Shown here: piece by piece, positions 16,090 to 27,707 of the stretch
Layout: each line of letters starts with the position of its first letter
How positions within the stretch are numbered: position 1 is the stretch's first letter
Sequence record: NC_025447.1
Direction: 5' to 3' (one strand)
From: Escherichia phage 121Q
DNA length: 64,000 nt
Translations under genes and position numbers: made by a program
Notes under the pieces: model-generated
What the model saw: the letters and a program-made list of their open reading frames with translations, nothing else
Told to the model about the DNA's origin: nothing
Databases searched by the model: none

Positions 16090-16260
16090 ATGAACGTTAA
16101 TCAAGTACTGAATGAAGTTGAAAGCATCATTAAACCAATGAAACGTATTGATGCTGTTCCTACACCGGAAGAATGCCGCCTTTATGAGCGTTACAGTGTG
16201 GAACAAGCCCAGGAAATGGCCCGTATCCGTCCGGTTGCCAGTACTGATAAGGCGGCGTAA
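16090..16260 (+). CDS. hypothetical small protein (56 aa)
   Basis: ATG 16090 after GGGGATTA; stop abuts next start. Confidence 0.45.
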   Translation: MNVNQVLNEVESIIKPMKRIDAVPTPEECRLYERYSVEQAQEMARIRPVASTDKAA

Positions 16261-16261
16261 T

Positions 16262-16471
16262 ATGCTTACTGTACAGGATAAGATCGACATCTTAAAGGTT
16301 AATATGTATGTGATTGATGCAGATCCTGAAAAAGTATTTGCATACGATGATTCTAATCGTAGTCCTTTTTATTGTAGTCATGTAGTTGGATACGTGCCGT
16401 TAGGGTATGTTATCGAAAGAGTGGTTGATGAAGCATACAAACATTTTTTAGAAAATAATACTTGCAATTAG
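16262..16471 (+). CDS. hypothetical protein (69 aa)
   Basis: Start trimmed from 16148 to ATG 16262 (MLTVQDKIDIL), directly after the stop of the upstream ORF. Confidence 0.5.
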   Translation: MLTVQDKIDILKVNMYVIDADPEKVFAYDDSNRSPFYCSHVVGYVPLGYVIERVVDEAYKHFLENNTCN

Positions 16472-16489
16472 TTTTCAGTACTGTATAAT
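16462..16489 (+). promoter_or_regulatory. early-type promoter with leader hairpin
   Basis: TTGCAA, 16-nt spacer, TATAAT; hairpin GGGGGGAATGGTTCTCCCC 16502-16520. Confidence 0.6.
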
Positions 16490-16538
16490 TGTTTACATAG
16501 AGGGGGGAATGGTTCTCCCCGATACTAGGAGAATCAAA

Positions 16539-16691
16539 ATGAAACAATACAACGCTCGGTTTGATGTTACTATCGGCAACGGCAAAGGTCAATTTTCTTT
16601 CAGTACTCGTAGGAGTTATACAGAAAACTTCCTGCGTAATTGTGCACTGACCGCCGCACAAATTAAACATTACTTTCAGGCTAAAAAATGA
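16539..16691 (+). CDS. hypothetical small protein (50 aa)
   Basis: Start trimmed to ATG 16539 after SD TAGGAGAA. Confidence 0.6.
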   Translation: MKQYNARFDVTIGNGKGQFSFSTRRSYTENFLRNCALTAAQIKHYFQAKK

Positions 16692-16777
16692 AATCATTGG
16701 CTTATTACAGTTCGGCCCTGGTCGGTGCATTGATCGCGGCATTGTTAGTAACTTATCTATTCTTTATGGTGATTTAA
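16688..16777 (+). CDS. 29-aa hydrophobic peptide (single predicted TM helix)
   Basis: ATGA overlap with upstream stop; MKSLAYYSSALVGALIAALLVTYLFFMVI. Confidence 0.4.
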   Translation: MKSLAYYSSALVGALIAALLVTYLFFMVI

Positions 16778-16915
16778 ATGAATCCTAACGGTTTAATTTA
16801 CAGTACTCCTAAAACGAAAGCAGATAAAGCGAAAGCACGTAAAGCGAAAGTAAAGCAGTACATCAAGCAAGGCATGACACGCAAAGCGGCATTGCTTAAA
16901 GCTAAAAATAAATGA
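16778..16915 (+). CDS. 45-aa lysine-rich basic peptide
   Basis: TAAATG junction with upstream peptide; MNPNGLIYSTPKTKADKAKARKAKVKQYIKQG... Confidence 0.4.
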   Translation: MNPNGLIYSTPKTKADKAKARKAKVKQYIKQGMTRKAALLKAKNK

Positions 16916-16924
16916 AAAAAGTGG

Positions 16925-16953
16925 TTGACTTCGGTCAGCCATTTTGCTATTAT
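16925..16953 (+). promoter_or_regulatory. promoter with embedded inverted repeat, driving the box element
   Basis: TTGACT, 17-nt spacer (tcggtcagccattttgc), TATTAT. Confidence 0.5.
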
Positions 16954-16976
16954 ATATTCATTGAGAGATAGCTCAC

Positions 16977-17007
16977 TAGCCCACAGGGTGCAGGAGTGTA
17001 TCTATTG
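16977..17007 (+). repeat. 'CCCACAGGGTGCA...GTATCTAT' box element
   Basis: tagcccacagggtgcaggagtgtatctattg; family also at 10608, 12819(-), 18658, 20666, 23969, 25888. Confidence 0.55.
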
Positions 17008-17057
17008 TATAATGATTGAGTACTGAAAACTATTTTAAAGTATTTGATAAAAAGTAC

Positions 17058-17085
17058 TTGCAAACTATCTCAATGAGCGTATAAT
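17058..17085 (+). promoter_or_regulatory. early-type promoter with leader hairpin
   Basis: TTGCAA, 16-nt spacer, TATAAT; hairpin GGAAACGGTTTCC ~17102-17114. Confidence 0.6.
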
Positions 17086-17138
17086 GTTTTATATCGCAAG
17101 GGGAAACGGTTTCCTCTCCAAATAAAAGGAATACCAAA

Positions 17139-17477
17139 ATGATCTCTATCGCTCAATCTAACTTTGAAAACGAAATCATCGCTCAGGCACTGCGTTTAAA
17201 TGATGGTCGGGCCGAAATCAATTACGGTTTCAATAGTGGTGGATGTGAAAAATATCAGTACTTTGTAACGGCTGATGGCTGTGTCCTGGGTATCAATACA
17301 GTTATTGTAAACATTCAGAAAATTAATTTCAATGATCCAGACGATAGCCAGTTTTACATCACGGGCGTAGACGTGAACTATGAGGATGACTCACTAACTG
17401 ATGATCACACTGGCGAGAAGTTAGAAAGTGCATACGGTGAAGATGATTATCAGTCAGTACCAGAAGATTTTGAATAA
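17139..17477 (+). CDS. hypothetical acidic protein (112 aa)
   Basis: SD AAAAGGAAT; ATG 17139. Confidence 0.65.
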   Translation: MISIAQSNFENEIIAQALRLNDGRAEINYGFNSGGCEKYQYFVTADGCVLGINTVIVNIQKINFNDPDDSQFYITGVDVNYEDDSLTDDHTGEKLESAYGEDDYQSVPEDFE

Positions 17478-17491
17478 TATTAAAAAATAGT

Positions 17492-17519
17492 TTGACAATA
17501 GTTTTTAGTACTGTATAAT
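17492..17519 (+). promoter_or_regulatory. early-type promoter with leader hairpin
   Basis: TTGACA, 16-nt spacer, TATAAT; hairpin GGGGAGAATAGTTCTCCCC 17532-17550. Confidence 0.65.
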
Positions 17520-17572
17520 TAATTACATCAAGGGGAGAATAGTTCTCCCCACTAACAGAGAGAGAAAACAAA

Positions 17573-17785
17573 ATGGCTAATATCCGCACTGTACTGAAAA
17601 ATGCAAAACAAGTTTTATTTTCTGATCATGAAAATTTCAACAAGGATATCACTGGCGTTCGGAATATCAAAGATGTAAAAAATGTTATGGGTATCTATTG
17701 CAATATGAAACGTGTTGGCACGTTCGGCGATAAAGTACTATACCAGGCAGGGGATTACAATTTTACACTGACTATCATTAACTAA
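17573..17785 (+). CDS. hypothetical protein (70 aa)
   Basis: SD AGAGAGAGAAAA; MANIRTVLKN. Confidence 0.65.
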   Translation: MANIRTVLKNAKQVLFSDHENFNKDITGVRNIKDVKNVMGIYCNMKRVGTFGDKVLYQAGDYNFTLTIIN

Positions 17786-17804
17786 AAATATTATCACAGT
17801 ACTA

Positions 17805-17833
17805 TTGACAACGTTTGATAGTACTGGCATAAT
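17805..17833 (+). promoter_or_regulatory. early-type promoter (variant 2)
   Basis: TTGACA, 17-nt spacer, CATAAT. Confidence 0.55.
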
Positions 17834-17876
17834 AACTTTTATCAAGACAACGCATATTAATTTAAGGAATACTAAA

Positions 17877-18056
17877 ATGGCTATTATCGCAAAAACTGAA
17901 ATCATCGGCCTGGATTCTATCATCATGACGTTTGAAGATCAAAAAGGGATGTATGTAGTTTCCTATGGTGATTATGTTCGGGAGTATGAAACAGTAGACG
18001 AAGCCTTTGAAAGTTACATTCGCCAGGTTAATAAAGCATACGACGATTACCGCTAA
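17877..18056 (+). CDS. hypothetical protein (59 aa)
   Basis: Start trimmed from 17805 (which lies in the promoter) to ATG 17877 after SD TAAGGAAT; MAIIAKTEII. Confidence 0.6.
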   Translation: MAIIAKTEIIGLDSIIMTFEDQKGMYVVSYGDYVREYETVDEAFESYIRQVNKAYDDYR

Positions 18057-18083
18057 AATATATTACCAGTACTATTAAATCTA

Positions 18084-18111
18084 TTGACAATGTTTGATAG
18101 TACTGTATAAT
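18084..18111 (+). promoter_or_regulatory. early-type promoter
   Basis: TTGACA, 16-nt spacer, TATAAT. Confidence 0.55.
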
Positions 18112-18155
18112 AAGTTTTATAAACAGTAGTTAACTTAACCTAAGAGAGAAAAATC

Positions 18156-18299
18156 ATGACAGCATTAGATTCATTCATCGACGCAGTACTGGCAAAAACT
18201 GGCGAGGATCTGACCGCAGAACAATACGCGATGATCGAACAATGTCAGCAAGACGGTAAATCGGTGAAAGATACTGTTAAGATTATCCGCAAGATGTAA
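18156..18299 (+). CDS. hypothetical small protein (47 aa)
   Basis: SD TAAGAGAGAAAAA then ATG 18156; MTALDSFIDAVLAKTGEDL...; followed by terminator. Confidence 0.5.
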   Translation: MTALDSFIDAVLAKTGEDLTAEQYAMIEQCQQDGKSVKDTVKIIRKM

Positions 18300-18305
18300 G
18301 ATTAT

Positions 18306-18337
18306 AGCCCACTGGTTAACGCTGGTGGGCTTTAATC
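18306..18337 (+). terminator. terminator-like hairpin containing a Chi octamer
   Basis: AGCCCAC..GTGGGCT stem, then TTTAATC (weak U-tract). Confidence 0.45.
18321..18328 (+). other. Chi octamer GCTGGTGG
   Basis: Exact match inside hairpin loop/arm. Confidence 0.6.
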
Positions 18338-18404
18338 ATTTACCCTATACAATGCCAGTACTAAACCGTTTAACTCGTTAGAATGCGTTACAGGACGTTT
18401 AACA

Positions 18405-18602
18405 ATGATTAGCATGAAATCAGTACAAAAACAAATAGAAACATTATCAAAAATTAAACGTAAACAGTACTCATTAGAATATACAATCAATGGTAACTAT
18501 CATCTAATGAAAGAAAATAATTTTATAGTCATTGATGAATCATTGCAGATCATTAGTATAGTACTGAAAGCATTAATCAATGACAGAAAAAAGTTAAAAT
18601 AA
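18405..18602 (+). CDS. hypothetical protein (65 aa), uncertain
   Basis: ORF without convincing SD; preceded by repeated cgttagaatgcg element. Confidence 0.3.
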   Translation: MISMKSVQKQIETLSKIKRKQYSLEYTINGNYHLMKENNFIVIDESLQIISIVLKALINDRKKLK

Positions 18603-18606
18603 TCTA

Positions 18607-18635
18607 TTGACAATATTATCCAGTACTGGCATAAT
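18607..18635 (+). promoter_or_regulatory. early-type promoter (variant 2) in front of a ~290-nt leader
   Basis: TTGACA, 17-nt spacer, CATAAT; leader holds box element and GATC cluster. Confidence 0.5.
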
Positions 18636-18657
18636 ACTTACATCAAGACGAGAACGT

Positions 18658-18691
18658 CACTAACCCATAGGGTGCACAAATGTAACTATAT
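18658..18691 (+). repeat. 'CCCATAGGGTGCA' box element
   Basis: cactaacccatagggtgcacaaatgtaactatat. Confidence 0.5.
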
Positions 18692-18697
18692 AATATC

Positions 18698-18768
18698 GAT
18701 CAATAAATGATCAAAAAAGTACTGGATCAATTTAGCATAAGGCGTATAATTCTGATCAAATCTTGATC
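18698..18768. repeat. Cluster of five GATCAA repeats (Dam-type GATC sites)
   Basis: cgatcaat, tgatcaaa, ggatcaat, tgatcaaa, tgatcaaa within ~70 bp. Confidence 0.5.
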
Positions 18769-18931
18769 AAAGGCAATAAACGTAGTTGAAATTATATAGA
18801 AAGTACAAAGGCGTTACCATTCGTGGTAATGCTGGGGAATATGTAGTATCATACGGTTTGAATAAAATCAGTACTAGTAGTATTATTGTAGCATTACAGT
18901 ACTATAGTATTTTTATAATGAGGTTAAAATA

Positions 18932-19189
18932 ATGGCTGTTGGATTCGCGAAGGACGGGGCCGAGCAAGACGAGATTAACGCAGTGATTCAGGCCGCTGTA
19001 AACCACGCTAGAACGCAAATTAACGCACAAATAGAATCACTGATACATTGCCTCGACTGCGGCGATAAAATCCCTGAGAATCGCCGCCTGGCCGTTAAGG
19101 GGTGTAAGTACTGCATCACTTGCCAGGCTGATCATGATAGCATATTCAAACGCAATCCCCGTAATTGTTGGCATAGATCTATGAGATAA
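18932..19189 (+). CDS. TraR/DksA-family C4 zinc-finger protein (candidate RNA-polymerase-binding modulator)
   Basis: CLDCGDKIPENRRLAVKGCKYCITCQ matches the C-x2-C-x17-C-x2-C spacing and the CxxCGxxIPExRR...C..CQ pattern of TraR/DksA zinc fingers; SD TGAGGT. Confidence 0.55.
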   Translation: MAVGFAKDGAEQDEINAVIQAAVNHARTQINAQIESLIHCLDCGDKIPENRRLAVKGCKYCITCQADHDSIFKRNPRNCWHRSMR

Positions 19190-19195
19190 AAAGTA

Positions 19196-19223
19196 TTGAC
19201 AGTACTGTTAGTTAGTGTATAAT
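19196..19223 (+). promoter_or_regulatory. early-type promoter
   Basis: TTGACA, 16-nt spacer, TATAAT. Confidence 0.55.
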
Positions 19224-19252
19224 ATTTTATATCTTAACTGAGGATTGAAATC

Positions 19253-19609
19253 ATGGGTATACAACATATCACGCGTACTACAGACAATGGTGAGATCACT
19301 GGCTATCAAGTACAAGGCAAAGTAGCACAATTGCAGTACTGGTTTGTTAAACGTGGCATTGTTGCACCGGATCTTGATTATGATCGTGTAGCGTTTATTG
19401 ATTCTCTTTATGTTGATCCCGATAATCGCGGTAACGGTGAAGGTACTGAGTTAATGAATGCCTTTATTGATGCCGCCGATGATTCAGATTGTATCATCTT
19501 AGAATGCGATACTGGAGAAGATAACGAGTTTAATCTTAAAGAATGGTATGAAGGTTTTGGATTTGAAGTACTGATTAACTGCGAATATCCTATAATGATT
19601 TTATCCTAG
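19253..19609 (+). CDS. possible GNAT-family N-acetyltransferase (118 aa)
   Basis: LYVDPDNRGNGEGTELMNAF resembles GNAT motif A (R-G-x-G-x-G); SD CTGAGGAT. Confidence 0.4.
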   Translation: MGIQHITRTTDNGEITGYQVQGKVAQLQYWFVKRGIVAPDLDYDRVAFIDSLYVDPDNRGNGEGTELMNAFIDAADDSDCIILECDTGEDNEFNLKEWYEGFGFEVLINCEYPIMILS

Positions 19610-19611
19610 TA

Positions 19612-19639
19612 CTTGCAATTAGTTTTAAGTACTGTATAA
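19612..19639 (+). promoter_or_regulatory. early-type promoter with leader hairpin
   Basis: TTGCAA, 16-nt spacer, TATAAT; hairpin 19652-19670. Confidence 0.65.
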
Positions 19640-19688
19640 TAGTTTACATGAAGGGGAGAATAGTTCTCCCCACTACAAGGAAAGACAA

Positions 19689-19877
19689 ATGCAAAACTTA
19701 TCAAGTATTTTAGTACAAGATGATTTCGGTAATCCTGGAAGTGCTATCATCGTTCGGGGCAATAAGGCAACGTTTGTTATTGCTGGTGGACCTGTACAGC
19801 GTAGCATTAAAAACAATGCAGTTACAATCAATAATGTTCGCTATCGCTTAGATAAAGAATTGATTCATAAACTTTAA
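19689..19877 (+). CDS. hypothetical protein (62 aa)
   Basis: SD AAGGAAAGA; ATG 19689. Confidence 0.6.
   Translation: MQNLSSILVQDDFGNPGSAIIVRGNKATFVIAGGPVQRSIKNNAVTINNVRYRLDKELIHKL
19782..19789 (+). other. Chi octamer GCTGGTGG (inside CDS)
   Basis: Exact match, codes IAGG. Confidence 0.55.
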
Positions 19878-19885
19878 AAAAGTAT

Positions 19886-19913
19886 TTGACAAAGCATTGT
19901 AGTACTGTATAAT
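19886..19913 (+). promoter_or_regulatory. early-type promoter with leader hairpin
   Basis: TTGACA, 16-nt spacer, TATAAT; hairpin 19926-19945. Confidence 0.65.
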
Positions 19914-19962
19914 AGTTTACATGAAGGGGAGAAATGATTCTCCCCACTAAGAGGAAAGAAAC

Positions 19963-20175
19963 ATGCAAGGTCAACTAATCGTTCGTAAATGGTCTGATAC
20001 TAACGAAAAACCGTGGGATGTTCAATATATCGGACCGGACGGTGTTTCACGTTATCAACCTGGCGTAACGCATAGTACTGAGCAATATGCCGCCGCTCAC
20101 CGCGAACGCCTGTTAGAATCTATGAAACAGGGATTCTGTGAAAAATTCATTCAAGATCATTGGCTGAAAGATTAA
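19963..20175 (+). CDS. hypothetical protein (70 aa)
   Basis: SD AAGAGGAAAGAA; ATG 19963. Confidence 0.65.
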   Translation: MQGQLIVRKWSDTNEKPWDVQYIGPDGVSRYQPGVTHSTEQYAAAHRERLLESMKQGFCEKFIQDHWLKD

Positions 20176-20194
20176 TATATAAGGAGTACAGCTT

Positions 20195-20287
20195 ATGCAA
20201 ATGAATCCGATGATTGTTGTGTTAGCTGTACTTATGATCATTCATGCCATCGTAGAAGTACTAACACAATCAGGAGTAATACAATGA
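20195..20287 (+). CDS. 30-aa hydrophobic peptide
   Basis: SD AAGGAG then ATG 20195; MQMNPMIVVLAVLMIIHAIVEVL...; ATGA overlap with next ORF. Confidence 0.4.
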   Translation: MQMNPMIVVLAVLMIIHAIVEVLTQSGVIQ

Positions 20288-20454
20288 TCCAAGTAGAATT
20301 ATCAGTACTGAAAGATCTGTTTTATCGGTTAGGCACTACTGGCGAATACCCTAAAGGGGATACTGCTAAACTATACATTGCATTGGATGTATGGCAACGT
20401 AATGAACTGGCTAACGCCTGGCGTAAAGGTAAATCAGAGGGGATTGCAGCATGA
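20284..20454 (+). CDS. hypothetical small protein (56 aa)
   Basis: Coupled start; MIQVELSVLKDLFYRLG... Confidence 0.4.
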   Translation: MIQVELSVLKDLFYRLGTTGEYPKGDTAKLYIALDVWQRNELANAWRKGKSEGIAA

Positions 20455-20600
20455 AAGAATTTTTATTCGAAGTAGTGTTCCAGGGCGTAGGAAGTAACCA
20501 ACTGATTCGATCAAGTGGTTACAATGTTAACCAGGCATGGAATAACATTAAACAAATGTACCCGAACGCTATCACATATCGCAACCCAAAACAAGTTTAA
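20451..20600 (+). CDS. hypothetical small protein (49 aa)
   Basis: ATGA coupling; MKEFLFEVVFQGVGSNQLIRS... Confidence 0.4.
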   Translation: MKEFLFEVVFQGVGSNQLIRSSGYNVNQAWNNIKQMYPNAITYRNPKQV

Positions 20601-20618
20601 AAAGAATAAAAAAAGGGA

Positions 20619-20647
20619 TTGACTCCGGTCAGTCCCTTTGCTATTAT
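20619..20647 (+). promoter_or_regulatory. promoter with embedded inverted repeat, driving box element
   Basis: TTGACT, 17-nt spacer (ccggtcagtccctttgc), TATTAT. Confidence 0.5.
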
Positions 20648-20665
20648 ATACGCATAGACAAAAAC

Positions 20666-20696
20666 TAGCCCACAGGGTGCATAAATGTATCTATTA
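20666..20696 (+). repeat. 'CCCACAGGGTGCA' box element
   Basis: tagcccacagggtgcataaatgtatctattat. Confidence 0.55.
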
Positions 20697-20699
20697 TAT

Positions 20700-20707
20700 G
20701 CTGGTGG
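20700..20707 (+). other. Chi octamer GCTGGTGG
   Basis: Exact match, intergenic, directly 3' of box element. Confidence 0.6.
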
Positions 20708-20747
20708 CTAGTACTATCAAGTACTGAAAACTATTTTTAAAAAGTAC

Positions 20748-20775
20748 TTGCATTGTACTTAGAATCAAGTATAAT
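20748..20775 (+). promoter_or_regulatory. early-type promoter (first of tandem pair)
   Basis: TTGCAT, 16-nt spacer, TATAAT; followed by conserved ~85-nt leader. Confidence 0.55.
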
Positions 20776-20862
20776 GTTTTACATCAGGACGGGGAACGAA
20801 ACAAGTAACCCCGTTAAGTAGTCCAGGAGTAAGACATACGAAAACCTCCCCTGATAAAATAG

Positions 20863-20890
20863 TTTGACAATAGAAATTAAACAAGTATAA
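20863..20890 (+). promoter_or_regulatory. early-type promoter (second of tandem pair)
   Basis: TTGACA, 16-nt spacer, TATAAT. Confidence 0.55.
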
Positions 20891-20921
20891 TACTTACATC
20901 AACCACAAAGAGGAATACAAA

Positions 20922-21122
20922 ATGAAACATTTTACTTTCGGTGTAGTAGGCTTTACAGTATCCAGCGGCGTTTATAAATCAGAACGCGGTGCTAAAAATG
21001 CAGCAAGTCGGGCGTATGGTTCACAGCGTGACTTACAGGTCGGTTATATTAGTAACATTAATAACATGTTTATTCCTGTTTCACAGCGTAAAGCGGGTAA
21101 CATGAAATGGGAAACAATTTGA
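20922..21122 (+). CDS. hypothetical protein (66 aa)
   Basis: SD AAGAGGAAT; ATG 20922. Confidence 0.65.
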   Translation: MKHFTFGVVGFTVSSGVYKSERGAKNAASRAYGSQRDLQVGYISNINNMFIPVSQRKAGNMKWETI

Positions 21123-21131
21123 TAAAATAGT

Positions 21132-21159
21132 TTGACAATAGTTTTTAGTACTGTATAAT
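21132..21159 (+). promoter_or_regulatory. early-type promoter with leader hairpin
   Basis: TTGACA, 16-nt spacer, TATAAT; hairpin GTGGGGAATAGTTCCCCAC 21173-21190. Confidence 0.65.
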
Positions 21160-21211
21160 ATTTTACATCAAGTGGGGAATAGTTCCCCACCTAACAAAGA
21201 GAGAAATTAAA

Positions 21212-21487
21212 ATGCGGATTCTACTGACAGCTAACGAAATCGAGCAAGTACTGACTACTAACCTGGAAGACTGGAAACGTGATGCAGATATCCAGGCGGT
21301 GCAATGGCTCAATGATAAGTTAACGCCGGATGATTTAAGTAAGATTGTAGATCCACAATTCTATGAAGATATTCACGACACGGCTTTAAGCGTCGAGGAT
21401 GTACTTGATAAGCACTACATTGATATTGATTTGCAGGTTTACGGTCGTAAAAACTTTATCACTATTCACGACATTTATAATAATTAA
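21212..21487 (+). CDS. hypothetical protein (91 aa)
   Basis: SD AAAGAGAGAAA; ATG 21212. Confidence 0.65.
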   Translation: MRILLTANEIEQVLTTNLEDWKRDADIQAVQWLNDKLTPDDLSKIVDPQFYEDIHDTALSVEDVLDKHYIDIDLQVYGRKNFITIHDIYNN

Positions 21488-21489
21488 GT

Positions 21490-21517
21490 ATTGACAAAGT
21501 ATCTTAGTACTGTATAA
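21490..21517 (+). promoter_or_regulatory. early-type promoter with leader hairpin
   Basis: TTGACA, 16-nt spacer, TATAAT; hairpin AGGGGAATGGTTCCCCT 21534-21550. Confidence 0.65.
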
Positions 21518-21574
21518 TAGTTTACATCAAGGCAGGGGAATGGTTCCCCTCCTAACTAAAAGAGAGAAATTAAA

Positions 21575-21898
21575 ATGACTATGATCCTTACCCAGAAAGT
21601 AGAAATGAAAATTGTAACTTCCTTTGACATTAAAGTCAATCGGTGGACTGATAGCCACGGCAATACTTACCACTCATGCTACGTGTCTGCATTGATTGGT
21701 GACCGCTGGGAAGACCTGGGACATGAAACCTTTACTTACGGTTACGGTACACAAGGCGAATACACGGGCTTGGAGATCATTAAAGAAACTGTAATAGGTT
21801 TCAACCCGAAAGAGAAAGTACTACACAGAATTGAGGATGAGATCAACAAAGAAATTACAGTTCGTTACTACGATGTAAAACGTAAGAAAGATATGTAA
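21575..21898 (+). CDS. hypothetical protein; paralog of 15365-15688
   Basis: Shared core NRWTDSHGNTYHSCYVS...FTYGY...VKRKKD. Confidence 0.7.
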   Translation: MTMILTQKVEMKIVTSFDIKVNRWTDSHGNTYHSCYVSALIGDRWEDLGHETFTYGYGTQGEYTGLEIIKETVIGFNPKEKVLHRIEDEINKEITVRYYDVKRKKDM

Positions 21899-21920
21899 TA
21901 GAATCCATTTAAAGTACTAT

Positions 21921-21949
21921 TTGACATTGCCCAGATAGTACTTTATAAT
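21921..21949 (+). promoter_or_regulatory. early-type promoter
   Basis: TTGACA, 17-nt spacer, TATAAT. Confidence 0.55.
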
Positions 21950-21997
21950 AGACTCTAACTTGTAGTACTAATTAACTTAACTAATAGGATGTACACC

Positions 21998-22393
21998 ATG
22001 ATTACTAAATTCTTCGCTACCCGTGAACAAGCTCGCATCGTTGCCCGTGAAGAAGGTGAAACATTTAAAGACATGGGCAAAGATGCACCGAAAGGACAAC
22101 GCTGGGCGGTACAGTTCAAAGAGATCTCTGATATTGTGAATTCACCTGAGCCTGTACTTACAGCAGCAGAACTAAAGCAAGCTCAAGAACTGGCTGAAGT
22201 ACTGAACGCTCAAGATGACTTTTTGAAAGGTTCTGATATTGAAGTTACAGTTAACGCAAATGCATGGACTCACGCGGATCACCTGGCAAACCTTAAGCGT
22301 CCAAGTGAACTGATTCGTAACCAGAAAGAGATCCGTCATGACCGTAAAGGAAACCGTGTAACAGTATACAGTAAACGCCGCCAGGTTATCTAA
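21998..22393 (+). CDS. hypothetical protein; paralog of 9941-10207
   Basis: Start set to second ATG (21998), which has SD AGGA 9 nt upstream; N- and C-terminal similarity to the 9941 protein. Confidence 0.65.
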   Translation: MITKFFATREQARIVAREEGETFKDMGKDAPKGQRWAVQFKEISDIVNSPEPVLTAAELKQAQELAEVLNAQDDFLKGSDIEVTVNANAWTHADHLANLKRPSELIRNQKEIRHDRKGNRVTVYSKRRQVI

Positions 22394-22416
22394 TAACTTT
22401 GCAGTACTAACAACAC

Positions 22417-22442
22417 GGCGGGAATATTTCCCGCCTTTTTTA
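22417..22442 (+). terminator. Rho-independent terminator
   Basis: GGCGGGAA-TAT-TTCCCGCC followed by TTTTTTAT. Confidence 0.7.
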
Positions 22443-22455
22443 TAGGATAAACAAA

Positions 22456-22710
22456 ATGATTAAGGTTCAACTATCAAACGATAATGTATTACGGGTACAC
22501 TATAAAGCTCCACAGAGAATCATCACAAAGGCCGTACAGCTTGCTAATGAGTTTATTAATGGTAGTCTATTGCCTAGGAAGTTAAGCAACGGGAAACTAC
22601 GTGTAATCGACGTAGACACTAACAATAGAATAGTGATCGAGAGTACTGGAAAAATTAATCTATATGAACACCAACAATACAATAAAAAAATAAAACTAAT
22701 ATCACGTTGA
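22456..22710 (+). CDS. hypothetical protein (84 aa)
   Basis: SD TAGGAT; ATG 22456. Confidence 0.6.
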   Translation: MIKVQLSNDNVLRVHYKAPQRIITKAVQLANEFINGSLLPRKLSNGKLRVIDVDTNNRIVIESTGKINLYEHQQYNKKIKLISR

Positions 22711-22735
22711 CAGTACTCAAATGTTTTAGTATTAT
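22707..22735 (+). promoter_or_regulatory. promoter (duplicated module, copy 1)
   Basis: TTGACA, 17-nt spacer (gtactcaaatgttttag), TATTAT; near-identical module at 22983. Confidence 0.55.
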
Positions 22736-22763
22736 GTATCTATACCAACACAGGAGAAACAAA

Positions 22764-22982
22764 ATGAAATTATCTAAAATCGAAAAGAAAACTATTGATG
22801 AAGCAGTGAAGCACGGTTATACCTTTCGTAATGATTCACACTTCACCAGTTTTCAACAGGGAAACCGTACCATCAAAAAACTCATTGATAAAGGTTTACT
22901 CACTAAGGTTGATAACGGGAACGGTGTAGAATATCAACCGACAGAAGACGCATTATCACTAAAGAAATATTCTATTATCTAA
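22764..22982 (+). CDS. hypothetical protein (72 aa)
   Basis: Start trimmed from 22707 (in the promoter) to ATG 22764 after SD CAGGAGAAACAAA. Confidence 0.6.
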   Translation: MKLSKIEKKTIDEAVKHGYTFRNDSHFTSFQQGNRTIKKLIDKGLLTKVDNGNGVEYQPTEDALSLKKYSII

Positions 22983-23011
22983 TTGACAGTACTCAAATGT
23001 TTTAGTACTAT
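22983..23011 (+). promoter_or_regulatory. promoter (duplicated module, copy 2)
   Basis: TTGACA, 17-nt spacer, TACTAT. Confidence 0.55.
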
Positions 23012-23039
23012 GTACGCATACCAACACGGGGAAAACAAA

Positions 23040-23282
23040 ATGATTACTTTAGAAAAACGTATCAAAGAGACTACAACGCTGGTGGAACTGTTAACCGTTC
23101 TTAAATGCCGGGTAACTCCATTCAGTACACCGGACTTTATCAACATGGTGGACGTTAACGGTCGCTATCGTATTGCGGTCGAACAAGGTACGGCAAAAGT
23201 ATTCAGTACTAAAAATACGCGTGAAGTATTCCACGCAGTTCAAGTAAAAAAAGTAGTTGCCATTGATAGTAAAGTACTGTAA
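23040..23282 (+). CDS. hypothetical protein (80 aa)
   Basis: Start trimmed to ATG 23040 after SD CGGGGAAAACAAA; shares promoter/leader but not protein sequence with 22764. Confidence 0.6.
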   Translation: MITLEKRIKETTTLVELLTVLKCRVTPFSTPDFINMVDVNGRYRIAVEQGTAKVFSTKNTREVFHAVQVKKVVAIDSKVL

Positions 23283-23313
23283 TATAGTTTCATTAACTCA
23301 AGGAGTCAACACA

Positions 23314-23898
23314 ATGCGTAACTATACTAAATTCATCCGTTCACTTCATGCAATGGAAACCAACAAAGAGATCCTTTCAGCTTGTCGGTTAGCTGGACTG
23401 GAGATCGTCGGTGCGGGTTCTTCCCGTATTGTATTCGCTTTAAATGATCGGTTAGTGATTAAGGTCGCGAATTGTGATGCGGGTGTAGAACAAAATGAAA
23501 CTGAATGTAAGGTATGGAATTTTTTAGATTATGACCGTCCGCACCTTAAACAGTTCTTTGCCAAGGTGCATATGCATTTATGCGATCCTGATAATCTGCT
23601 TATTGTTATGGATCGTTTGAGTACTGCAAGCAAAGGCAGTGTAAAGCACGTAACCGCATGTAATGAGTTAAAGTACAATATTAAACGTAACACTATTGAA
23701 CGCCATCACCATTTCGCTGATGCTCTCAATCACGTTGATGATACATTATCCACACTAACGATAAGAGATATCAGAAAACAGAATATCGGCCAGGATCGCA
23801 ACGGCTTGATTAAAGTACTTGATTACGGTTTAACCCGCAATATCTGGAATCAGTACTATAAAAAACGTGATGTTAACGCGATAACTATAACACGATAA
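23314..23898 (+). CDS. putative protein-kinase-like protein (194 aa)
   Basis: Motif order resembles a kinase core: Gly-rich loop GAGSSRIVF, lysine in LVIKVAN, catalytic-loop-like RDIRKQNIG, DFG-like DYG; start trimmed to ATG 23314 after SD CAAGGAGT. Confidence 0.4.
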   Translation: MRNYTKFIRSLHAMETNKEILSACRLAGLEIVGAGSSRIVFALNDRLVIKVANCDAGVEQNETECKVWNFLDYDRPHLKQFFAKVHMHLCDPDNLLIVMDRLSTASKGSVKHVTACNELKYNIKRNTIERHHHFADALNHVDDTLSTLTIRDIRKQNIGQDRNGLIKVLDYGLTRNIWNQYYKKRDVNAITITR

Positions 23899-23916
23899 AA
23901 AAGATTAAAAAAGGGA

Positions 23917-23945
23917 TTGACTCCAGTCAGTCCCTTTGCTATTAT
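23917..23945 (+). promoter_or_regulatory. promoter with embedded inverted repeat, driving box element
   Basis: TTGACT, 17-nt spacer, TATTAT. Confidence 0.5.
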
Positions 23946-23968
23946 ATATTCATTGAGAGATAACTCAC

Positions 23969-24000
23969 TGACCCATAGGGTGCGGAAGTGTATCTATTAT
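23969..24000 (+). repeat. 'CCCATAGGGTGCG' box element
   Basis: tgacccatagggtgcggaagtgtatctattat. Confidence 0.55.
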
Positions 24001-24039
24001 ATAAGTATTCAGTACTGAAAACTATTTTATAAAAAGTAC

Positions 24040-24067
24040 TTGCAAACTATCTCAATGAGCGTATAAT
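24040..24067 (+). promoter_or_regulatory. early-type promoter with leader hairpin
   Basis: TTGCAA, 16-nt spacer, TATAAT; hairpin ~24078-24098; the 23917-24067 cassette is near-identical to 16925-17085. Confidence 0.6.
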
Positions 24068-24122
24068 GTTTTATATCGAGAGGGGGAAATGGTTCTCCCT
24101 GGTACTAAAAGGAATCAAGACG

Positions 24123-24344
24123 ATGGCTACTATGACCTGCGTTCACGCTTCAAATCTTCTGAATGATGCAGCATTTAAAGCAGGTGAAGAATATCAATGC
24201 TATCGGGATGAAAATAAAAAAGTTTTCGTCGTTGATGCTAACGGTTTCCATATTGAATTGCAATCCGGTTTCACTGGCATTGATGGTAAATCTGTATGGG
24301 GCGTCCAGGACGATAACGGCACATATCATTTTAAACGTAATTAA
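24123..24344 (+). CDS. hypothetical protein (73 aa)
   Basis: Start trimmed to ATG 24123 after SD AAAAGGAAT. Confidence 0.6.
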   Translation: MATMTCVHASNLLNDAAFKAGEEYQCYRDENKKVFVVDANGFHIELQSGFTGIDGKSVWGVQDDNGTYHFKRN

Positions 24345-24345
24345 G

Positions 24346-24373
24346 TATTGACAAAGTATATCAGTACTGTATA
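24346..24373 (+). promoter_or_regulatory. early-type promoter with leader hairpin
   Basis: TTGACA, 16-nt spacer, TATAAT; hairpin 24387-24405. Confidence 0.65.
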
Positions 24374-24428
24374 ATAGTTTACATCAAGGGGAGAATAGTT
24401 CTCCCCACCAATAAAAGGAAACAAAATT

Positions 24429-24701
24429 ATGTCCAGCTACTCCGCTACTATGATTATTAAAGATATGAACGGTAATCCTACTTCTGCTGGTGGATCATTT
24501 GGTAACATTAATTTAGATGGGCGGTTATCAATTGAATCAGCCATCAATGCAGCGAAAGAAGTTTTTAAGAATGAATGTACTGTAAGCAAGCTGGATTATA
24601 TGGGCTTCGCTATCGAGAAAACTAATCGTTTTGTGGACTACAAAAAACCACTGATGATTGATACTAACCTGAAAGCAAACGAAGTGGAATACTTATTATG
24701 A
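24429..24701 (+). CDS. hypothetical protein (90 aa)
   Basis: SD AAAAGGAAA; ATG 24429. Confidence 0.65.
   Translation: MSSYSATMIIKDMNGNPTSAGGSFGNINLDGRLSIESAINAAKEVFKNECTVSKLDYMGFAIEKTNRFVDYKKPLMIDTNLKANEVEYLL
24485..24492 (+). other. Chi octamer GCTGGTGG (inside CDS)
   Basis: Exact match, codes SAGG. Confidence 0.55.
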
Positions 24702-24889
24702 CAGTAGAAGAAGTTAAAAAAGTACTGGCAGTACTACGCTATCATAATCATTGTAAGGTGAAGAATGATCCTGATTATCTTGATTCATCGCTGGAAGAGG
24801 ATACACTACAAGCAATAAGCCATATGCAAAAAATGCTTAAGCGTATGACCGAAAAGAACAGGCCGGACTATATCGGAAATAAAATTTAA
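24698..24889 (+). CDS. hypothetical protein (63 aa)
   Basis: ATGA coupling to upstream gene. Confidence 0.55.
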   Translation: MTVEEVKKVLAVLRYHNHCKVKNDPDYLDSSLEEDTLQAISHMQKMLKRMTEKNRPDYIGNKI

Positions 24890-24895
24890 AAAGTA

Positions 24896-24923
24896 CTTGC
24901 ATTGTAAGTAAAACAAAGTATAA
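24896..24923 (+). promoter_or_regulatory. early-type promoter with leader hairpin
   Basis: TTGCAT, 16-nt spacer, TATAAT; hairpin GGGGGAGATATCCTCCCCC 24934-24952. Confidence 0.6.
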
Positions 24924-24972
24924 TGTTTTACATAGGGGGAGATATCCTCCCCCACTAATAAGGAGTACTAAA

Positions 24973-25197
24973 ATGGCTAACTTTGATGAACTGATGCGGG
25001 AAGTAGCTACCCTGGCAGAAGAGAAGAAATCATTTGATTCTATCTATAACACCGCTTACAGTGATTCAGTACTGGCATGTACTCAGGATCAAAAAGATGA
25101 ACTGATCGCCACCTATCATGAAGCATGGAAGTATTACCGCCAATGGGAGAAAGAAGAAAGCGAGTCTACCATCAACGGCATCAATAATCTAATCTAA
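24973..25197 (+). CDS. hypothetical protein (74 aa)
   Basis: SD TAAGGAGT; MANFDELMREV. Confidence 0.65.
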   Translation: MANFDELMREVATLAEEKKSFDSIYNTAYSDSVLACTQDQKDELIATYHEAWKYYRQWEKEESESTINGINNLI

Positions 25198-25215
25198 AGT
25201 TTTATTTCAGTACTA

Positions 25216-25244
25216 TTGACAATGCGTGATAGTACTGATGTGAT
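25216..25244 (+). promoter_or_regulatory. promoter-like element (weak -10)
   Basis: TTGACA, ~17-nt spacer, TGTGAT. Confidence 0.35.
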
Positions 25245-25271
25245 AACTTTACTAACTAAAGGGGAAACATA

Positions 25272-25529
25272 ATGGAACAGTTCACACAATATCGGGTAAA
25301 TCCTCAAGCTATGGCCTACGTAGAAGACCATAAAACGTTACCAGTACTAACACCAATTAAAGGCCATATCTATCGTGCTATGCAGTGGAATAACGCCTAT
25401 AATGGCTATAAAGCGGTATCCGCTGCAATGTACTTAGGGGATGGCGAATGGTTTGATCCAAATAATCCTGGTGCACTCGATAGTACTGAAAAAATGACAT
25501 GGGCCGACTATATCGAAGATATCTCATAA
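25272..25529 (+). CDS. hypothetical protein (85 aa)
   Basis: SD AAAGGGGAAA; ATG 25272. Confidence 0.6.
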   Translation: MEQFTQYRVNPQAMAYVEDHKTLPVLTPIKGHIYRAMQWNNAYNGYKAVSAAMYLGDGEWFDPNNPGALDSTEKMTWADYIEDIS

Positions 25530-25536
25530 AAACTAT

Positions 25537-25564
25537 TTGACAGTACTACAAGATAATGTATAAT
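25537..25564 (+). promoter_or_regulatory. early-type promoter with leader hairpin
   Basis: TTGACA, 16-nt spacer, TATAAT; hairpin GCGGGGGAATAGTTCTCCCGC 25577-25597. Confidence 0.6.
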
Positions 25565-25617
25565 GTTTTACATAGAGCGGGGGAATAGTTCTCCCGCACC
25601 TTTAGGAGTAAAACATT

Positions 25618-25818
25618 ATGTCAATCGCTAACGAATTGGTTGCAGTACTGAATGAAGCAAAAGCCAACTGCATCGATGTACAGATCAAAGAGCTTGGCAA
25701 TGGCTTGATCGGCTGTACTTGTACAGTGCAAACGGCTACCGATTATCGGGAAGTGGAATCACTCGAATCACTGGTACGGTATATTAAAATCCTGGTAGAA
25801 GATTGGAGAATCATCTAA
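25618..25818 (+). CDS. hypothetical protein (66 aa)
   Basis: SD TTAGGAGT; ATG 25618. Confidence 0.65.
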   Translation: MSIANELVAVLNEAKANCIDVQIKELGNGLIGCTCTVQTATDYREVESLESLVRYIKILVEDWRII

Positions 25819-25840
25819 CAAAAAAGAATAAAAAAAGGGA

Positions 25841-25869
25841 TTGACTCCGGTCAGTCCCTTTGCTATTAT
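25841..25869 (+). promoter_or_regulatory. promoter with embedded inverted repeat, driving box element
   Basis: TTGACT, 17-nt spacer, TATTAT. Confidence 0.5.
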
Positions 25870-25887
25870 ATACGCATAGACAAAAAC

Positions 25888-25918
25888 TAGCCCACTGGGT
25901 GCAGAGAAGTATCTGTAA
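25888..25918 (+). repeat. 'CCCACTGGGTGCA' box element
   Basis: tagcccactgggtgcagagaagtatctgtaag. Confidence 0.5.
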
Positions 25919-25946
25919 GATAGTTAATAACGGTGAGTAACTATCT

Positions 25947-25954
25947 GCTGGTGG
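25947..25954 (+). other. Chi octamer GCTGGTGG
   Basis: Exact match, intergenic. Confidence 0.6.
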
Positions 25955-25991
25955 ATGTAATTCCAGTACTCAAAACTATTTCAAAAAAGTA

Positions 25992-26020
25992 TTGACAAAG
26001 TATAGCAGTACTGAGATAAT
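25992..26020 (+). promoter_or_regulatory. promoter-like element
   Basis: TTGACA, 16-nt spacer (aagtatagcagtactg), AGATAA/GATAAT. Confidence 0.45.
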
Positions 26021-26074
26021 GTATCTCGTAGGGCGGCAATAGTGCAGCCCACCTCCAAAAGAGCGAGATATAAA

Positions 26075-26290
26075 ATGGCGTTAACCAAACAAGAAATTAT
26101 CGACCGTATCAAAGAGTCAACTGGCTGGTATGTTGGGGACCGTTTAATTGTTAAAGTTCTCGATTATTCAAATAATCCTCTTGCACCGGAACCAGTGGCA
26201 TACAAATTATCCTGGATATCTGCGTTTAGCGGTAAGCGTGAAAGATGTGTGTACTATCCGAACACCGTCGGGCTACAGTTCTGTAAATAA
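26075..26290 (+). CDS. hypothetical protein (71 aa)
   Basis: Start trimmed to ATG 26075 after SD AAAAGAGCGAGA. Confidence 0.6.
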   Translation: MALTKQEIIDRIKESTGWYVGDRLIVKVLDYSNNPLAPEPVAYKLSWISAFSGKRERCVYYPNTVGLQFCK

Positions 26291-26308
26291 ATTTTAATAG
26301 AAAAAGTA

Positions 26309-26337
26309 TTGACAAAGTATATCAGTACTGCAATAAT
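26309..26337 (+). promoter_or_regulatory. promoter-like element
   Basis: TTGACA, 16-nt spacer, CAATAA; same architecture as 25992. Confidence 0.45.
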
Positions 26338-26390
26338 GTATCTCGTAGGGCGGCAATGGTGCGACGGCCCACAAAGTTAGGAGATTCAAA

Positions 26391-26717
26391 ATGAGTACTT
26401 CAATCGCTATCGTTAAAGCTTTCATCCGTACCAATTTCGACCGCATTACTGTTGATGGTAATGATCGGGAAGTAGAATACTCTTTCATTGTTGCACAAAC
26501 CGCAAACGGTGCACGCTATATCTTAAATGACAGTGAAGCTAACCACTACTTCTATAATAAAGGATTACACTACATCCCTAGCGAAGTAGTCTACACTAAG
26601 ATGAATAAGCTGGTAGACAAGATTAACGCTAAAGGTACTATCGATTTACAGTACTGGAGCGAAACCGAACCAGAATACGGATCACATCGTTACCTGAATC
26701 CAGGAATTAAAATGTAA
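26391..26717 (+). CDS. hypothetical protein (108 aa)
   Basis: SD TTAGGAGAT; ATG 26391. Confidence 0.65.
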   Translation: MSTSIAIVKAFIRTNFDRITVDGNDREVEYSFIVAQTANGARYILNDSEANHYFYNKGLHYIPSEVVYTKMNKLVDKINAKGTIDLQYWSETEPEYGSHRYLNPGIKM

Positions 26718-26724
26718 AAAGTAC

Positions 26725-26752
26725 TTGCATTGTACTTAGAATCAAGTATAAT
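26725..26752 (+). promoter_or_regulatory. early-type promoter with leader hairpin
   Basis: TTGCAT, 16-nt spacer, TATAAT; hairpin 26766-26786. Confidence 0.6.
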
Positions 26753-26806
26753 GTTTTACATAGAGAGGGGGAAATGGTTCTCCCTCCTAAATTAAGGAGT
26801 TTTATC

Positions 26807-27208
26807 ATGACCTTCTCAATCACTTCCTTCGCTGACGTTTTAGTACTGGCTCGGACTTTTGGTAAAGATGCACTGGAGTACGCTGTAAGTAATGGCACTC
26901 TCCAACCGGAACAATGCCGCATCATTGGAAACTGTAAACGTTGGGCGGTATCCAATACTATTGCACTAGAAAACTTCAACGATGGTAACAATGAGTATTC
27001 AGTTGATGCAGTATTCGAAGCCGTTGATCTTGGCGGTATCTATAACACTAACCTAAATGATGTGCGTATCGTTCGCACGGGGTTCGGTGCTTATGATGTA
27101 TCTATCCGTGAAGCTATGAACACCGGATACATTAGTAAGGACTTACTTGCTCACATCATGCAGCTATGGACGGAACGTAACGAAGCACGCACTATCTTAG
27201 GACTATAA
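26807..27208 (+). CDS. hypothetical protein (133 aa)
   Basis: Start trimmed to ATG 26807 after SD TTAAGGAGT. Confidence 0.65.
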   Translation: MTFSITSFADVLVLARTFGKDALEYAVSNGTLQPEQCRIIGNCKRWAVSNTIALENFNDGNNEYSVDAVFEAVDLGGIYNTNLNDVRIVRTGFGAYDVSIREAMNTGYISKDLLAHIMQLWTERNEARTILGL

Positions 27209-27276
27209 GCATTACACATCACCAAACATCATAGGCCGCTCTCTAGCGGCCTTAACTATATCAGGAGTACATACAT

Positions 27277-27486
27277 ATGTTCTATACAGTATACAGCGTT
27301 CTAGGTACTATTGCTGGCGTACATGATAACGTCGCTGATGCTATGCGTACAGTACTAACACAAGTCCCCCTCAAGCCTAAGACTGTTAAGCAGATGACAG
27401 CTAGACTTACCAGGGCTGGCGATGGCGTGGAAGTATGGCAGGACTACGGGGATACACAGATAATCGTTAGCGTAACGAAGGATTAA
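27277..27486 (+). CDS. hypothetical protein (69 aa)
   Basis: SD CAGGAGTA; preceded by hairpin GGCCGCTCTCTAGCGGCC. Confidence 0.6.
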   Translation: MFYTVYSVLGTIAGVHDNVADAMRTVLTQVPLKPKTVKQMTARLTRAGDGVEVWQDYGDTQIIVSVTKD

Positions 27487-27514
27487 TGCGTAAAGGGATC
27501 TAGTACTGATTCAG

Positions 27515-27580
27515 AAAAAAGTCAAGGCGTTTTTAAAATTATGCGTTAAAAAAATGCATAGGTAATCCCTTGACTTTTTT
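27515..27580. repeat. Long inverted repeat at the boundary between early region and array 2 (possible bidirectional terminator)
   Basis: aaaaaagtcaagg ...~40 nt... ccttgactttttt. Confidence 0.5.
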
Positions 27581-27677
27581 GAAATAAAAGGGATTGGACT
27601 ATGGCAAAATGCGTGGGGGGCTAAAGTGCGGGTAACCTTAGCGACTTCGATAAAGGGGTATTACGAATAAAATGTTA

Positions 27678-27707
27678 TTGACTTTTTATACAATTCATAT
27701 ATTATAT
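27678..27707 (+). promoter_or_regulatory. promoter-like element upstream of array 2
   Basis: TTGACT, 17-nt spacer, ATTATA. Confidence 0.4.

Follow-up and report, generated by a model that had tools for sequence, protein, structure and literature searches.

The DNA considered here is a 64,000-nucleotide stretch of Escherichia phage 121Q (sequence record NC_025447.1, one strand, 5′ to 3′), called the window throughout. It comes from a jumbo coliphage of the genus Asteriusvirus (PBECO4/121Q/slurp01 type, genome ~350 kb), and the element in question is a perfect inverted repeat at the right edge of its long direct terminal repeat (DTR). Three rightward genes, the last in the DTR, lead up to this element (26391-26717, 26774-27208, and 27277-27486 in the list of open reading frames, ORFs), and the third encodes a 69-aa protein. 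The repeat starts 29 nt 3′ of the stop of that gene, at 27486, and the next promoter lies at 27678. No ORF of at least 20 aa overlaps 27490-27700 on either strand, and the region has no coding potential. A repeat finder returned two 13-nt arms, 27515-27527 and 27568-27580, that are 100% complementary and separated by 40 nt. An earlier sequence-only reading had described 13-bp arms around a ~40-nt A/T-rich spacer with inner palindromes, lying after the last early gene (27277-27486) and before the promoter of a gene array (27678-27705), and both the shape and the placement were borne out. The spacer is 75% A+T, and its inner palindrome forms a 9-bp helix with two G-U pairs at 27539-27561 in plus-strand RNA.

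Repeats of this quality are rare in the window. The 64 kb contain three perfect inverted repeats with arms of 13 nt or more and loops of 3-60 nt, compared with a mean of 0.16 and a maximum of 1 in first-order shuffles, and arithmetic from the shuffle counts puts the odds of such a repeat within this particular 250-nt intergenic region at ~1e-3. The other two lie at 8066-8078/8127-8139 and 62935-62947/62964-62976; the former is made of a CAGTACTG-type motif and is ~600 nt inside the left DTR end. A search of Rfam returned no family at threshold for the region, and its sole match, bglG-cis-reg at 28.4 bits against a gathering score of 80, was taken as chance.

Read as rightward RNA, the repeat has the stable stem, the U-tract, and the position of an intrinsic terminator. 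The core hairpin GUCAAGG..CCUUGAC folds at -15.9 kcal/mol (all hairpin energies are from unconstrained folds) and is followed by six uridines (27575-27580), a tract that reads UUUUAU in the clade of the relative vB_Ec-M-J. With the A and U tracts included, the fold reaches -22.7 to -23.6 kcal/mol, with z = -5.8 relative to shuffles, and the canonical hairpin-plus-T-run terminators of the same DTR range from -12.9 to -14.5 kcal/mol. The hairpin follows a codirectional gene, precedes the next promoter, and lies in a stretch without an ORF. Local precedent comes from four composite hairpins in the same DTR (16918, 20612, 23910, and 25834), in which TTGACT likewise sits between A- and T-tracts after stop codons. 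The standard terminator scan, with loops of 3-8 nt, missed the repeat because of its 40-nt interior.

The direction of folding also points to RNA. In all four lineages with substantial hairpins at this place, G-U pairs give the transcribed strand a more stable fold than its complement, with values of -15.9 and -9.9 kcal/mol in the window, -13.9 and -9.8 in vB_Ec-M-J, -7.5 and -4.4 in Erwinia phage Kaldavass, and -14.6 and -13.4 in Erwinia phage Hallingskeid. The terminator proposed in the sequence-only reading was bidirectional, and only its rightward half is thermodynamically credible (-15.9 kcal/mol, followed by U6). The leftward half has little basis, as all flanking ORFs are on the plus strand and the minus-strand core hairpin reaches only -9.9 kcal/mol.

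The repeat is therefore read here, with a confidence falling just short of even, as an intrinsic (factor-independent) terminator that would close the last rightward early unit of the DTR (promoter ~26309; genes 26391-27486) and that would be built on a conserved terminus-proximal element. In the proposed sequence of events, RNA polymerase would transcribe the A6-GUCAAGG left arm, the 40-nt spacer would pre-fold into its own small hairpin, and the emerging CCUUGAC would then pair with the left arm directly upstream of the U6 tract, destabilising the elongation complex 29-95 nt after the stop codon. Such a terminator would insulate the DTR from the small-ORF array, which has a promoter of its own and begins 40 nt past the DTR edge.

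The position of that edge is set by relatives. A 3.5-kb segment of the window (26000-29500) matches 40 Asteriusvirus-type records at 80-95% identity. The linear record of vB_Ec-M-J carries an annotated 21,525-bp DTR (1..21525) that ends in the homologous intergenic region; aligned to the window, its position 1 falls at 7458, and its annotated DTR end and its last base both fall at 27638. On the 5′ side of 7458, the window continues directly from the sequence that precedes the right-hand DTR copy. These anchors and this continuity indicate that the window is a collapsed assembly holding a single DTR copy. Five more linear records from other laboratories stop at the identical base (CRJP21, fEgEco12, BF17, E9.1, and G17, the last in reverse orientation), and the shared record end, ...GCGGGTAACCT, lies 152 nt after the stop of the 69-aa gene. 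The record of BAU.Micro_ELP-22 ends 24 nt after the gene and was treated as an arbitrary record boundary, unlike the six concordant records. The ends of fEgEco12 were determined with PhageTerm and confirmed by restriction digests (PMC13070987), the same source lists ~20-kb repeats for the few relatives with known ends (PMC13070987), and the G17 and CBB papers deduced ~20-22-kb repeats from read depth.

The sequence-only reading had placed a boundary between an early region and paralog arrays at the repeat itself. That boundary is real, and, judged from the aligned record ends, it is the right DTR edge and the physical right end of the packaged chromosome, between 27638 and 27639. The structural boundary thus lies 58 nt to the right of the repeat, which occupies the interval 58-123 nt inside the edge, its right arm 58 nt from the cut. 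The DTR as such has already been published for Asteriusvirus, and the conserved end region described below is the more original result; the fEgEco12, G17, and CBB papers did not analyse the DTR boundary sequences and contain no description of such a right-end recognition region.

The non-coding tail between the 69-aa gene and the cut was compared across 12 lineages from at least five genera, with all comparative evidence drawn from GenBank phage records. The lineages comprise five in Asteriusvirus (window type, vB_Ec-M-J type, JNE01/Turkey5, A4, and EJP2), fENko-Kae01 for the Klebsiella/Salmonella group (Munch is identical across the tail), CBB and XbC2 in Mimasvirus, Serratia BF and Yersinia fHe-Yen9-04 in Eneladusvirus, and the Erwinia phages Kaldavass and Hallingskeid. 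The 69-aa protein is the last DTR gene product across a wide set of Rak2-like jumbo phages, with tblastn matches in Asteriusvirus, the Munch/fENko group, RaK2, CBB, GAP32, BF, Yen9-04, XbC2, Kaldavass, and Hallingskeid, and between groups these proteins are only ~30-45% identical. In CBB the homolog is an unannotated 66-aa ORF just before the DTR end (22091-22291 of the CBB record). In RaK2 the homolog is directly followed by another gene, so that there is no such tail for comparison. Searches of IMG/VR returned no relatives with the 69-aa protein, no matches with the DNA pattern GGATTGGACTATG..GGGTAACCTTAGC, and only CBB plus nine unrelated chance matches with the DNA pattern GCATAGGTAATCCCTT.

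In all 12 lineages the tail is 148-169 nt long, measured from the first stop-codon base up to the cut (155 nt in the window when so counted), and it ends at GTAAyGCT↓TAGC, or at GTAACCT↓TAGC in Asteriusvirus, where the arrow marks the cut. This motif lies where PhageTerm sets the DTR end of fENko-Kae01, where read depth sets that of CBB, and where the records of Kaldavass and Hallingskeid physically end. Upstream of it, several short blocks keep fixed distances to the cut (Table 1), among them the core of the right arm and a 20-nt block, AAATGCATAGGTAATCCCTT, whose last four bases the right arm shares. Both GATTGGACTATG and GGTAACCTTAGCG occur once in the window. Together with the inverted motif at the left boundary described below, the conserved features of the tail look like a putative recognition and cleavage region of the cos/pac type. 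The 3′ arm of the hairpin is the TTGACTTTT block, which many genera keep 69 nt from the terminase cut, and the terminator would therefore share bases with a conserved DNA element near the terminus that probably serves in its own right to recognise the genome end.

Two local peculiarities were seen in the tails. Turkey5 carries an ~80-nt tandem duplication of the tail start that includes the end of the 69-aa gene (428-590 of the compared segment), and the block TAAGGTATTGGTT of fENko/Munch (760-772 of the compared segment) matches exactly, on the opposite strand, the AACCAATACCTTA that JNE01 and A4 have at the homologous place, which may reflect a small inversion or an orientation-independent site.

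Table 1. Features at and around the right DTR edge, with positions in the window or distances to the cut after 27638
Feature	Position	Strand	Remarks
DTR, ~20.2 kb, single collapsed copy	7458..27638	+	Unique right-end sequence up to 7457 on one side, unique left-end sequence from 27639 on the other
Short hairpin GGCAGA-GGAAG-TCTGCC	7462..7478	+	4 nt inside the left physical end
Presumed promoter of the last three DTR genes, sigma-70-like TTGACA-17-AATAAT with TG	26309..26337	+	Consensus scan; operon inferred
Last DTR gene, 69-aa protein, phrog_17833	27277..27486	+	ORF list; tblastn relatives
Non-coding DTR tail, 152 nt	27487..27638	+	Without ORF of at least 20 aa
Left arm AAAAAAGTCAAGG	27515..27527	+	Inverted copy of the TTGACT block
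Spacer, 40 nt, 75% A+T	27528..27567	+	Contains the inner hairpin
Block AAATGCATAGGTAATCCCTT	27552..27571	+	20/20 nt identical to Pectobacterium phage CBB; ends 67 nt before the cut in both
Right arm CCTTGACTTTTTT	27568..27580	+	TTGACTTTT core from 69 nt before the cut; T-run also serves as U-tract
GATTGGACTATG box	27592..27603	+	ACTATG from 41 nt before the cut; single copy in the window
Cut-site motif GGGTAACCT↓TAGCG	27630..27643	+	Physical right end after 27638; single copy in the window
GGGGTATTAC block shortly beyond the DTR edge	27655..27664	+	Similar GGGGTAT(A.GTAT)TAC in BF, Yen9-04, XbC2, and CBB; compared by eye, without statistics
Promoter-like TTGACT-16-TATTAT of the first small-ORF array (first gene 27736-27933)	27678..27705	+	40 nt outside the DTR
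Second TTGACTTTT	Starts 96-97 nt before the cut		5/12 lineages
GGTAATC-type block	Starts 76-78 nt before the cut (73-74 for the CCAATAC variant of JNE01/A4)		12/12 lineages
TT(G/A)AC(T/A)TTT	Starts 68-70 nt before the cut		9/12 lineages
(A/C)CTATG	Starts 40-41 nt before the cut		11/12 lineages

The complete dyad varies between lineages. A left-arm GTCAA stands 98-129 nt before the cut in six of the 12 lineages and pairs with whichever TTGAC copy is available, namely the copy at -97 in Kaldavass (gap 11), A4 (gap 7, with an 11-bp perfect stem), and CBB (gap 27), and the copy at -69 in the window clade (gap 44), Hallingskeid (gap 39), and fENko/Munch (gap 23). In every dyad lineage except A4, the hairpin is followed by TTTT. 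The long-gap pairings are reinforced, in the window clade by 13 perfect pairs and the inner hairpin, and in Hallingskeid by an outer GAGUCAA/UUGACUU stem around an unrelated 14-bp inner hairpin, with -22.4 kcal/mol in total and a U4CU tail, a parallel compound design. The retention of a dyad while its geometry and loop length vary fits a nucleic-acid hairpin better than a dimeric protein site. An idea that the half-sites keep helical phasing looked promising with two phages (44 and 23 nt) and failed with A4, CBB, Kaldavass, and Hallingskeid (7, 27, 11, and 39 nt).

The complete dyad is absent from JNE01/Turkey5 (a remnant AGTCA is left, and the right arm is replaced by CCTTAGCG), EJP2, BF, Yen9-04, and XbC2; JNE01, Turkey5, and EJP2 keep the cut motif and its neighbouring blocks despite this loss. 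The dyad therefore cannot be essential for making the DTR end. The same absences speak for another explanation, in which the repeat would have no function of its own and would be a by-product of duplicated or decaying -35 fragments in an A+T-rich spacer, kept through another constraint on one arm. In accord with this quite improbable explanation, three copies of TTGACTTTTT fall within 170 nt (at 27516 on the minus strand and at 27570 and 27678 on the plus strand), the last of which supplies the -35 of the array promoter, a usable -10 is missing from both arms, and no compensatory changes accompany the arms. A 13/13 perfect match is nevertheless improbable by drift, it is precisely in the two long-gap lineages (window clade and Hallingskeid) that the complementarity reaches far past the shared 5-mer, and the dyad recurs with different partners in six lineages.

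The TTGACT copies on both arms, facing outward from an A+T-rich centre, also raise the question of back-to-back sigma-70 promoters, or of an RNA polymerase decoy, with the spacer shared as an UP element. The minus-strand TTGACT-17-TAGATC even resembles the early-promoter layout TTGACA-N10-CAGTACTG-TATAAT. The arms were rejected as sigma-70 promoters for want of -10 elements, since the rightward candidate ATTGGA matches at one position of six and the leftward TAGATC lacks the essential -7 T; moreover, the promoter scan calls neither arm, and leftward transcripts would be antisense to every DTR gene. Promoter or decoy activity thus seems extremely unlikely. Elsewhere in the DTR, 13 perfect-consensus sigma-70 promoters (TTGACA-16/17-TATAAT) lie between 7822 and 25564, all on the plus strand and most followed by a hairpin in the 5′ untranslated region. 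The CAGTACTG motif occupies the spacer of strong early promoters (TTGACA-N10-CAGTACTG-TATAAT), as well as sites throughout coding regions, with 61 copies in the window against 0.6 expected, and is present in the tails and junctions of CBB, fENko-Kae01, and BF. The palindrome AGTACT occurs 265 times in the window against 21.5 expected from base composition, a 12-fold excess that makes it by far the most over-represented 6-nt palindrome. Examples of these over-represented motifs lie at 7836, 12474, 16476, 24362, 26006, and 26323.

Several findings weigh against the terminator. Its 40 nt between arms compare with a typical terminator loop of 3-8 nt, and the G+C-rich part of its stem is only 7 bp with four G-C pairs. 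Asteriusvirus offers only two haplotypes of the dyad, one uncompensated arm change apart, changes in the vB_Ec-M-J clade disrupt the inner helix, and no compensatory substitutions or covariation were seen across haplotypes. Hairpins at this place are weak or absent in JNE01, Turkey5, fENko/Munch, BF, Yen9-04, and XbC2, which indicates that a terminator is not universally required at the tail, and in A4 a strong hairpin is followed by A-rich rather than U-rich sequence. A fixed distance from right arm to cut is needless for a terminator and points to a DNA-level constraint. Finally, RNAalifold found no consensus structure in the 12-way tail alignment, the 5′ half of which is unreliable, so that lineage-specific hairpins are still possible; this result and the fixed-register blocks indicate that the distal ~100 nt are conserved as primary sequence.

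The main competing explanation, possible but unlikely, is that the dyad is a DNA-level part of the genome-end maturation site, acting with AAATGCATAGGTAATCCCTT, TTGACTTTT, GATTGGACTATG, and GTAAyCT↓TAGCG. As a cruciform, a single-strand hairpin, or inverted protein-binding sites, it would help terminase or accessory proteins to recognise, bend, or cut the right DTR boundary, or to duplicate the DTR at concatemer junctions. The repeat does lie 58-123 nt from an end mapped in six Asteriusvirus records, and the same cut motif ends fENko-Kae01, CBB, Kaldavass, and Hallingskeid. The right arm and its neighbours stay in fixed register (68-70, 76-78, and 40-41 nt) across at least five genera whose flanking proteins are 30-45% identical, CBB shares the 20-nt block with the window without a mismatch, the blocks each occur once in the window, what is conserved is primary sequence rather than a consensus structure, and an IHF-like 12/13 match falls on the right arm. 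This register fails for the left arm, and hence for the dyad, which is missing in JNE01, Turkey5, EJP2, BF, Yen9-04, and XbC2, the first three of which keep the cut motif. Half-site spacings of 7, 11, 23, 27, 39, and 44 nt, without phase, suit a dimeric binder poorly, and a plus-strand hairpin preference is not expected of duplex recognition. The recombination or structural site that the sequence-only reading had offered as an alternative is not supported as stated and gains only indirectly, in that the cut and the conserved blocks adjoin the repeat and overlap its right arm only.

The two DTR boundaries resemble each other in ways that would also suit DNA-level recognition. The motif ↓TAG(C/T)G stands directly outside both in inverted orientation, as CCT↓TAGCG at the right and, on the bottom strand, as ACT↓TAGTG at the left, and the same holds in vB_Ec-M-J (with an extra T at both boundaries), fENko-Kae01, and CBB. 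The plus-strand hexamer GTAATC clusters only at the left boundary, where five of its 19 window copies fall within 230 nt (7309, 7329, 7351, 7529, and 7539), and one further copy lies at 27562, in the conserved block near the right boundary. The related sequence CATAGGTA(A/G)TC is present at 7314 and 27557. At the place that the short left-end hairpin occupies in the window, fENko-Kae01 has an unrelated 8-bp hairpin, TATCTTCT-CTGTATA-AGAAGATA (471-493 of the compared segment). On the outer side of the right edge, homology to Salmonella phages SD-1/2/6/15 and to PBECO4/BF17 breaks or becomes gapped from ~27650, ~12-20 nt past the edge, which marks the unique region beside the DTR as a mosaic breakpoint.

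In its boldest form, the DNA-level explanation makes the dyad a working part of a hitherto undescribed cis-acting right-end site that would span Rak2-like genera and extend from ~120 nt inside to ~30 nt outside the DTR edge, with the blocks AAATGCATAGGTAATCCCTT / TTGACTTTT / ACTATG / GTAAyCT↓TAGCG and the matching inverted ↓TAGYG at the left edge. This proposal as a whole is doubtful. If true, a hairpin or cruciform of inverted TTGACT copies would aid sequence-specific cuts by a T4-type terminase, duplication of the 20-kb repeat, or a pause in DNA entry once the early module is inside.

Most likely the repeat is no more than a terminator of the ordinary kind with an odd shape, and its direct importance is then small. 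Its context matters more. It ties the module boundary to the physical genome end, and it brings to light a short stretch of non-coding DNA, unique and deeply conserved, around the right DTR cut of Rak2-like jumbo phages from at least five genera. Mutations in the conserved blocks and in the inverted ↓TAGYG could be used to test terminase recognition, and both features could serve for placing genome starts in new assemblies and for phage engineering.

Among known systems, the left terminal repeat of T5 has at its right end an untranslated repeat region, the injection stop signal (bioRxiv 10.1101/866236). By analogy, the structured tail that closes the left DTR copy on its right side would halt ejection after the ~20-kb early module, so that host takeover comes first. 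The likeness lies in a long DTR, crowded with small early genes and with many strong sigma-70 promoters, whose right end is non-coding, carries a dyad, and is conserved above the neighbouring ORFs. The tail is, however, about ten times shorter, at 152 nt with one main dyad compared with ~1.2-1.6 kb of nested repeats in T5, it lacks nested repeat families, and it contains no DnaA box (no TTWTNCACA within one mismatch). The dyad is also missing in close relatives, and the fEgEco12, G17, and CBB papers report no two-step entry. An injection-stop role is thus very unlikely, and the size of the tail and the missing DnaA boxes argue that the repeat is not a T5-type signal.

Phages with defined ends have terminase recognition and cleavage regions, such as lambda cosN/cosB with its IHF site and the concatemer-junction signals of T7 and T3. 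Maturation in T7 has been linked to a signal for transcriptional pausing or termination and to a repeat near the junction that can form a hairpin. The right DTR edge resembles these regions in having unique conserved blocks at fixed distances on both sides of the cut, an inverted ↓TAGYG at both boundaries, and an IHF-like match. It differs in that Rak2-like phages encode a T4-like large terminase (CBB paper) and have ~20-kb DTRs rather than cohesive ends or 160-bp repeats, and that the dyad is dispensable in several relatives.

Closest to the preferred terminator reading are intrinsic terminators with A- and U-tracts, known from the ends of bacterial and phage operons, which share with the repeat a stem-loop of comparable stability just 3′ of a stop codon, with A6 before it and U6 directly after. 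Unlike them, the repeat has a 40-nt, partly self-folded interior in place of a 3-8-nt loop and only four G-C pairs in its 7-bp core, its 3′ arm is constrained by distance to a DNA cut, and it faces no convergent gene. Related elements lie in the same DTR, where the composite element AAAGGGATTGACTCCGGTCAGTCCCTTTGCTATTATAT occurs four times (16918-16955, 20612-20649, 23910-23947, and 25834-25871). It consists of an A-tract and a 12-bp hairpin right after a stop codon, the 5′ arm of which holds the -35 TTGACT of the next promoter (-10 TATTAT), and from its layout it looks like a fused terminator and promoter. Like these elements, the repeat combines an A-tract, a TTGACT hairpin, and a T-rich tail directly after a stop. 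In the composite elements, TTGACT lies in the 5′ arm, with a 4-nt loop and a TATTAT -10 at 17 nt, whereas the repeat carries TTGACT in its 3′ arm around a 40-nt interior and has no -10.

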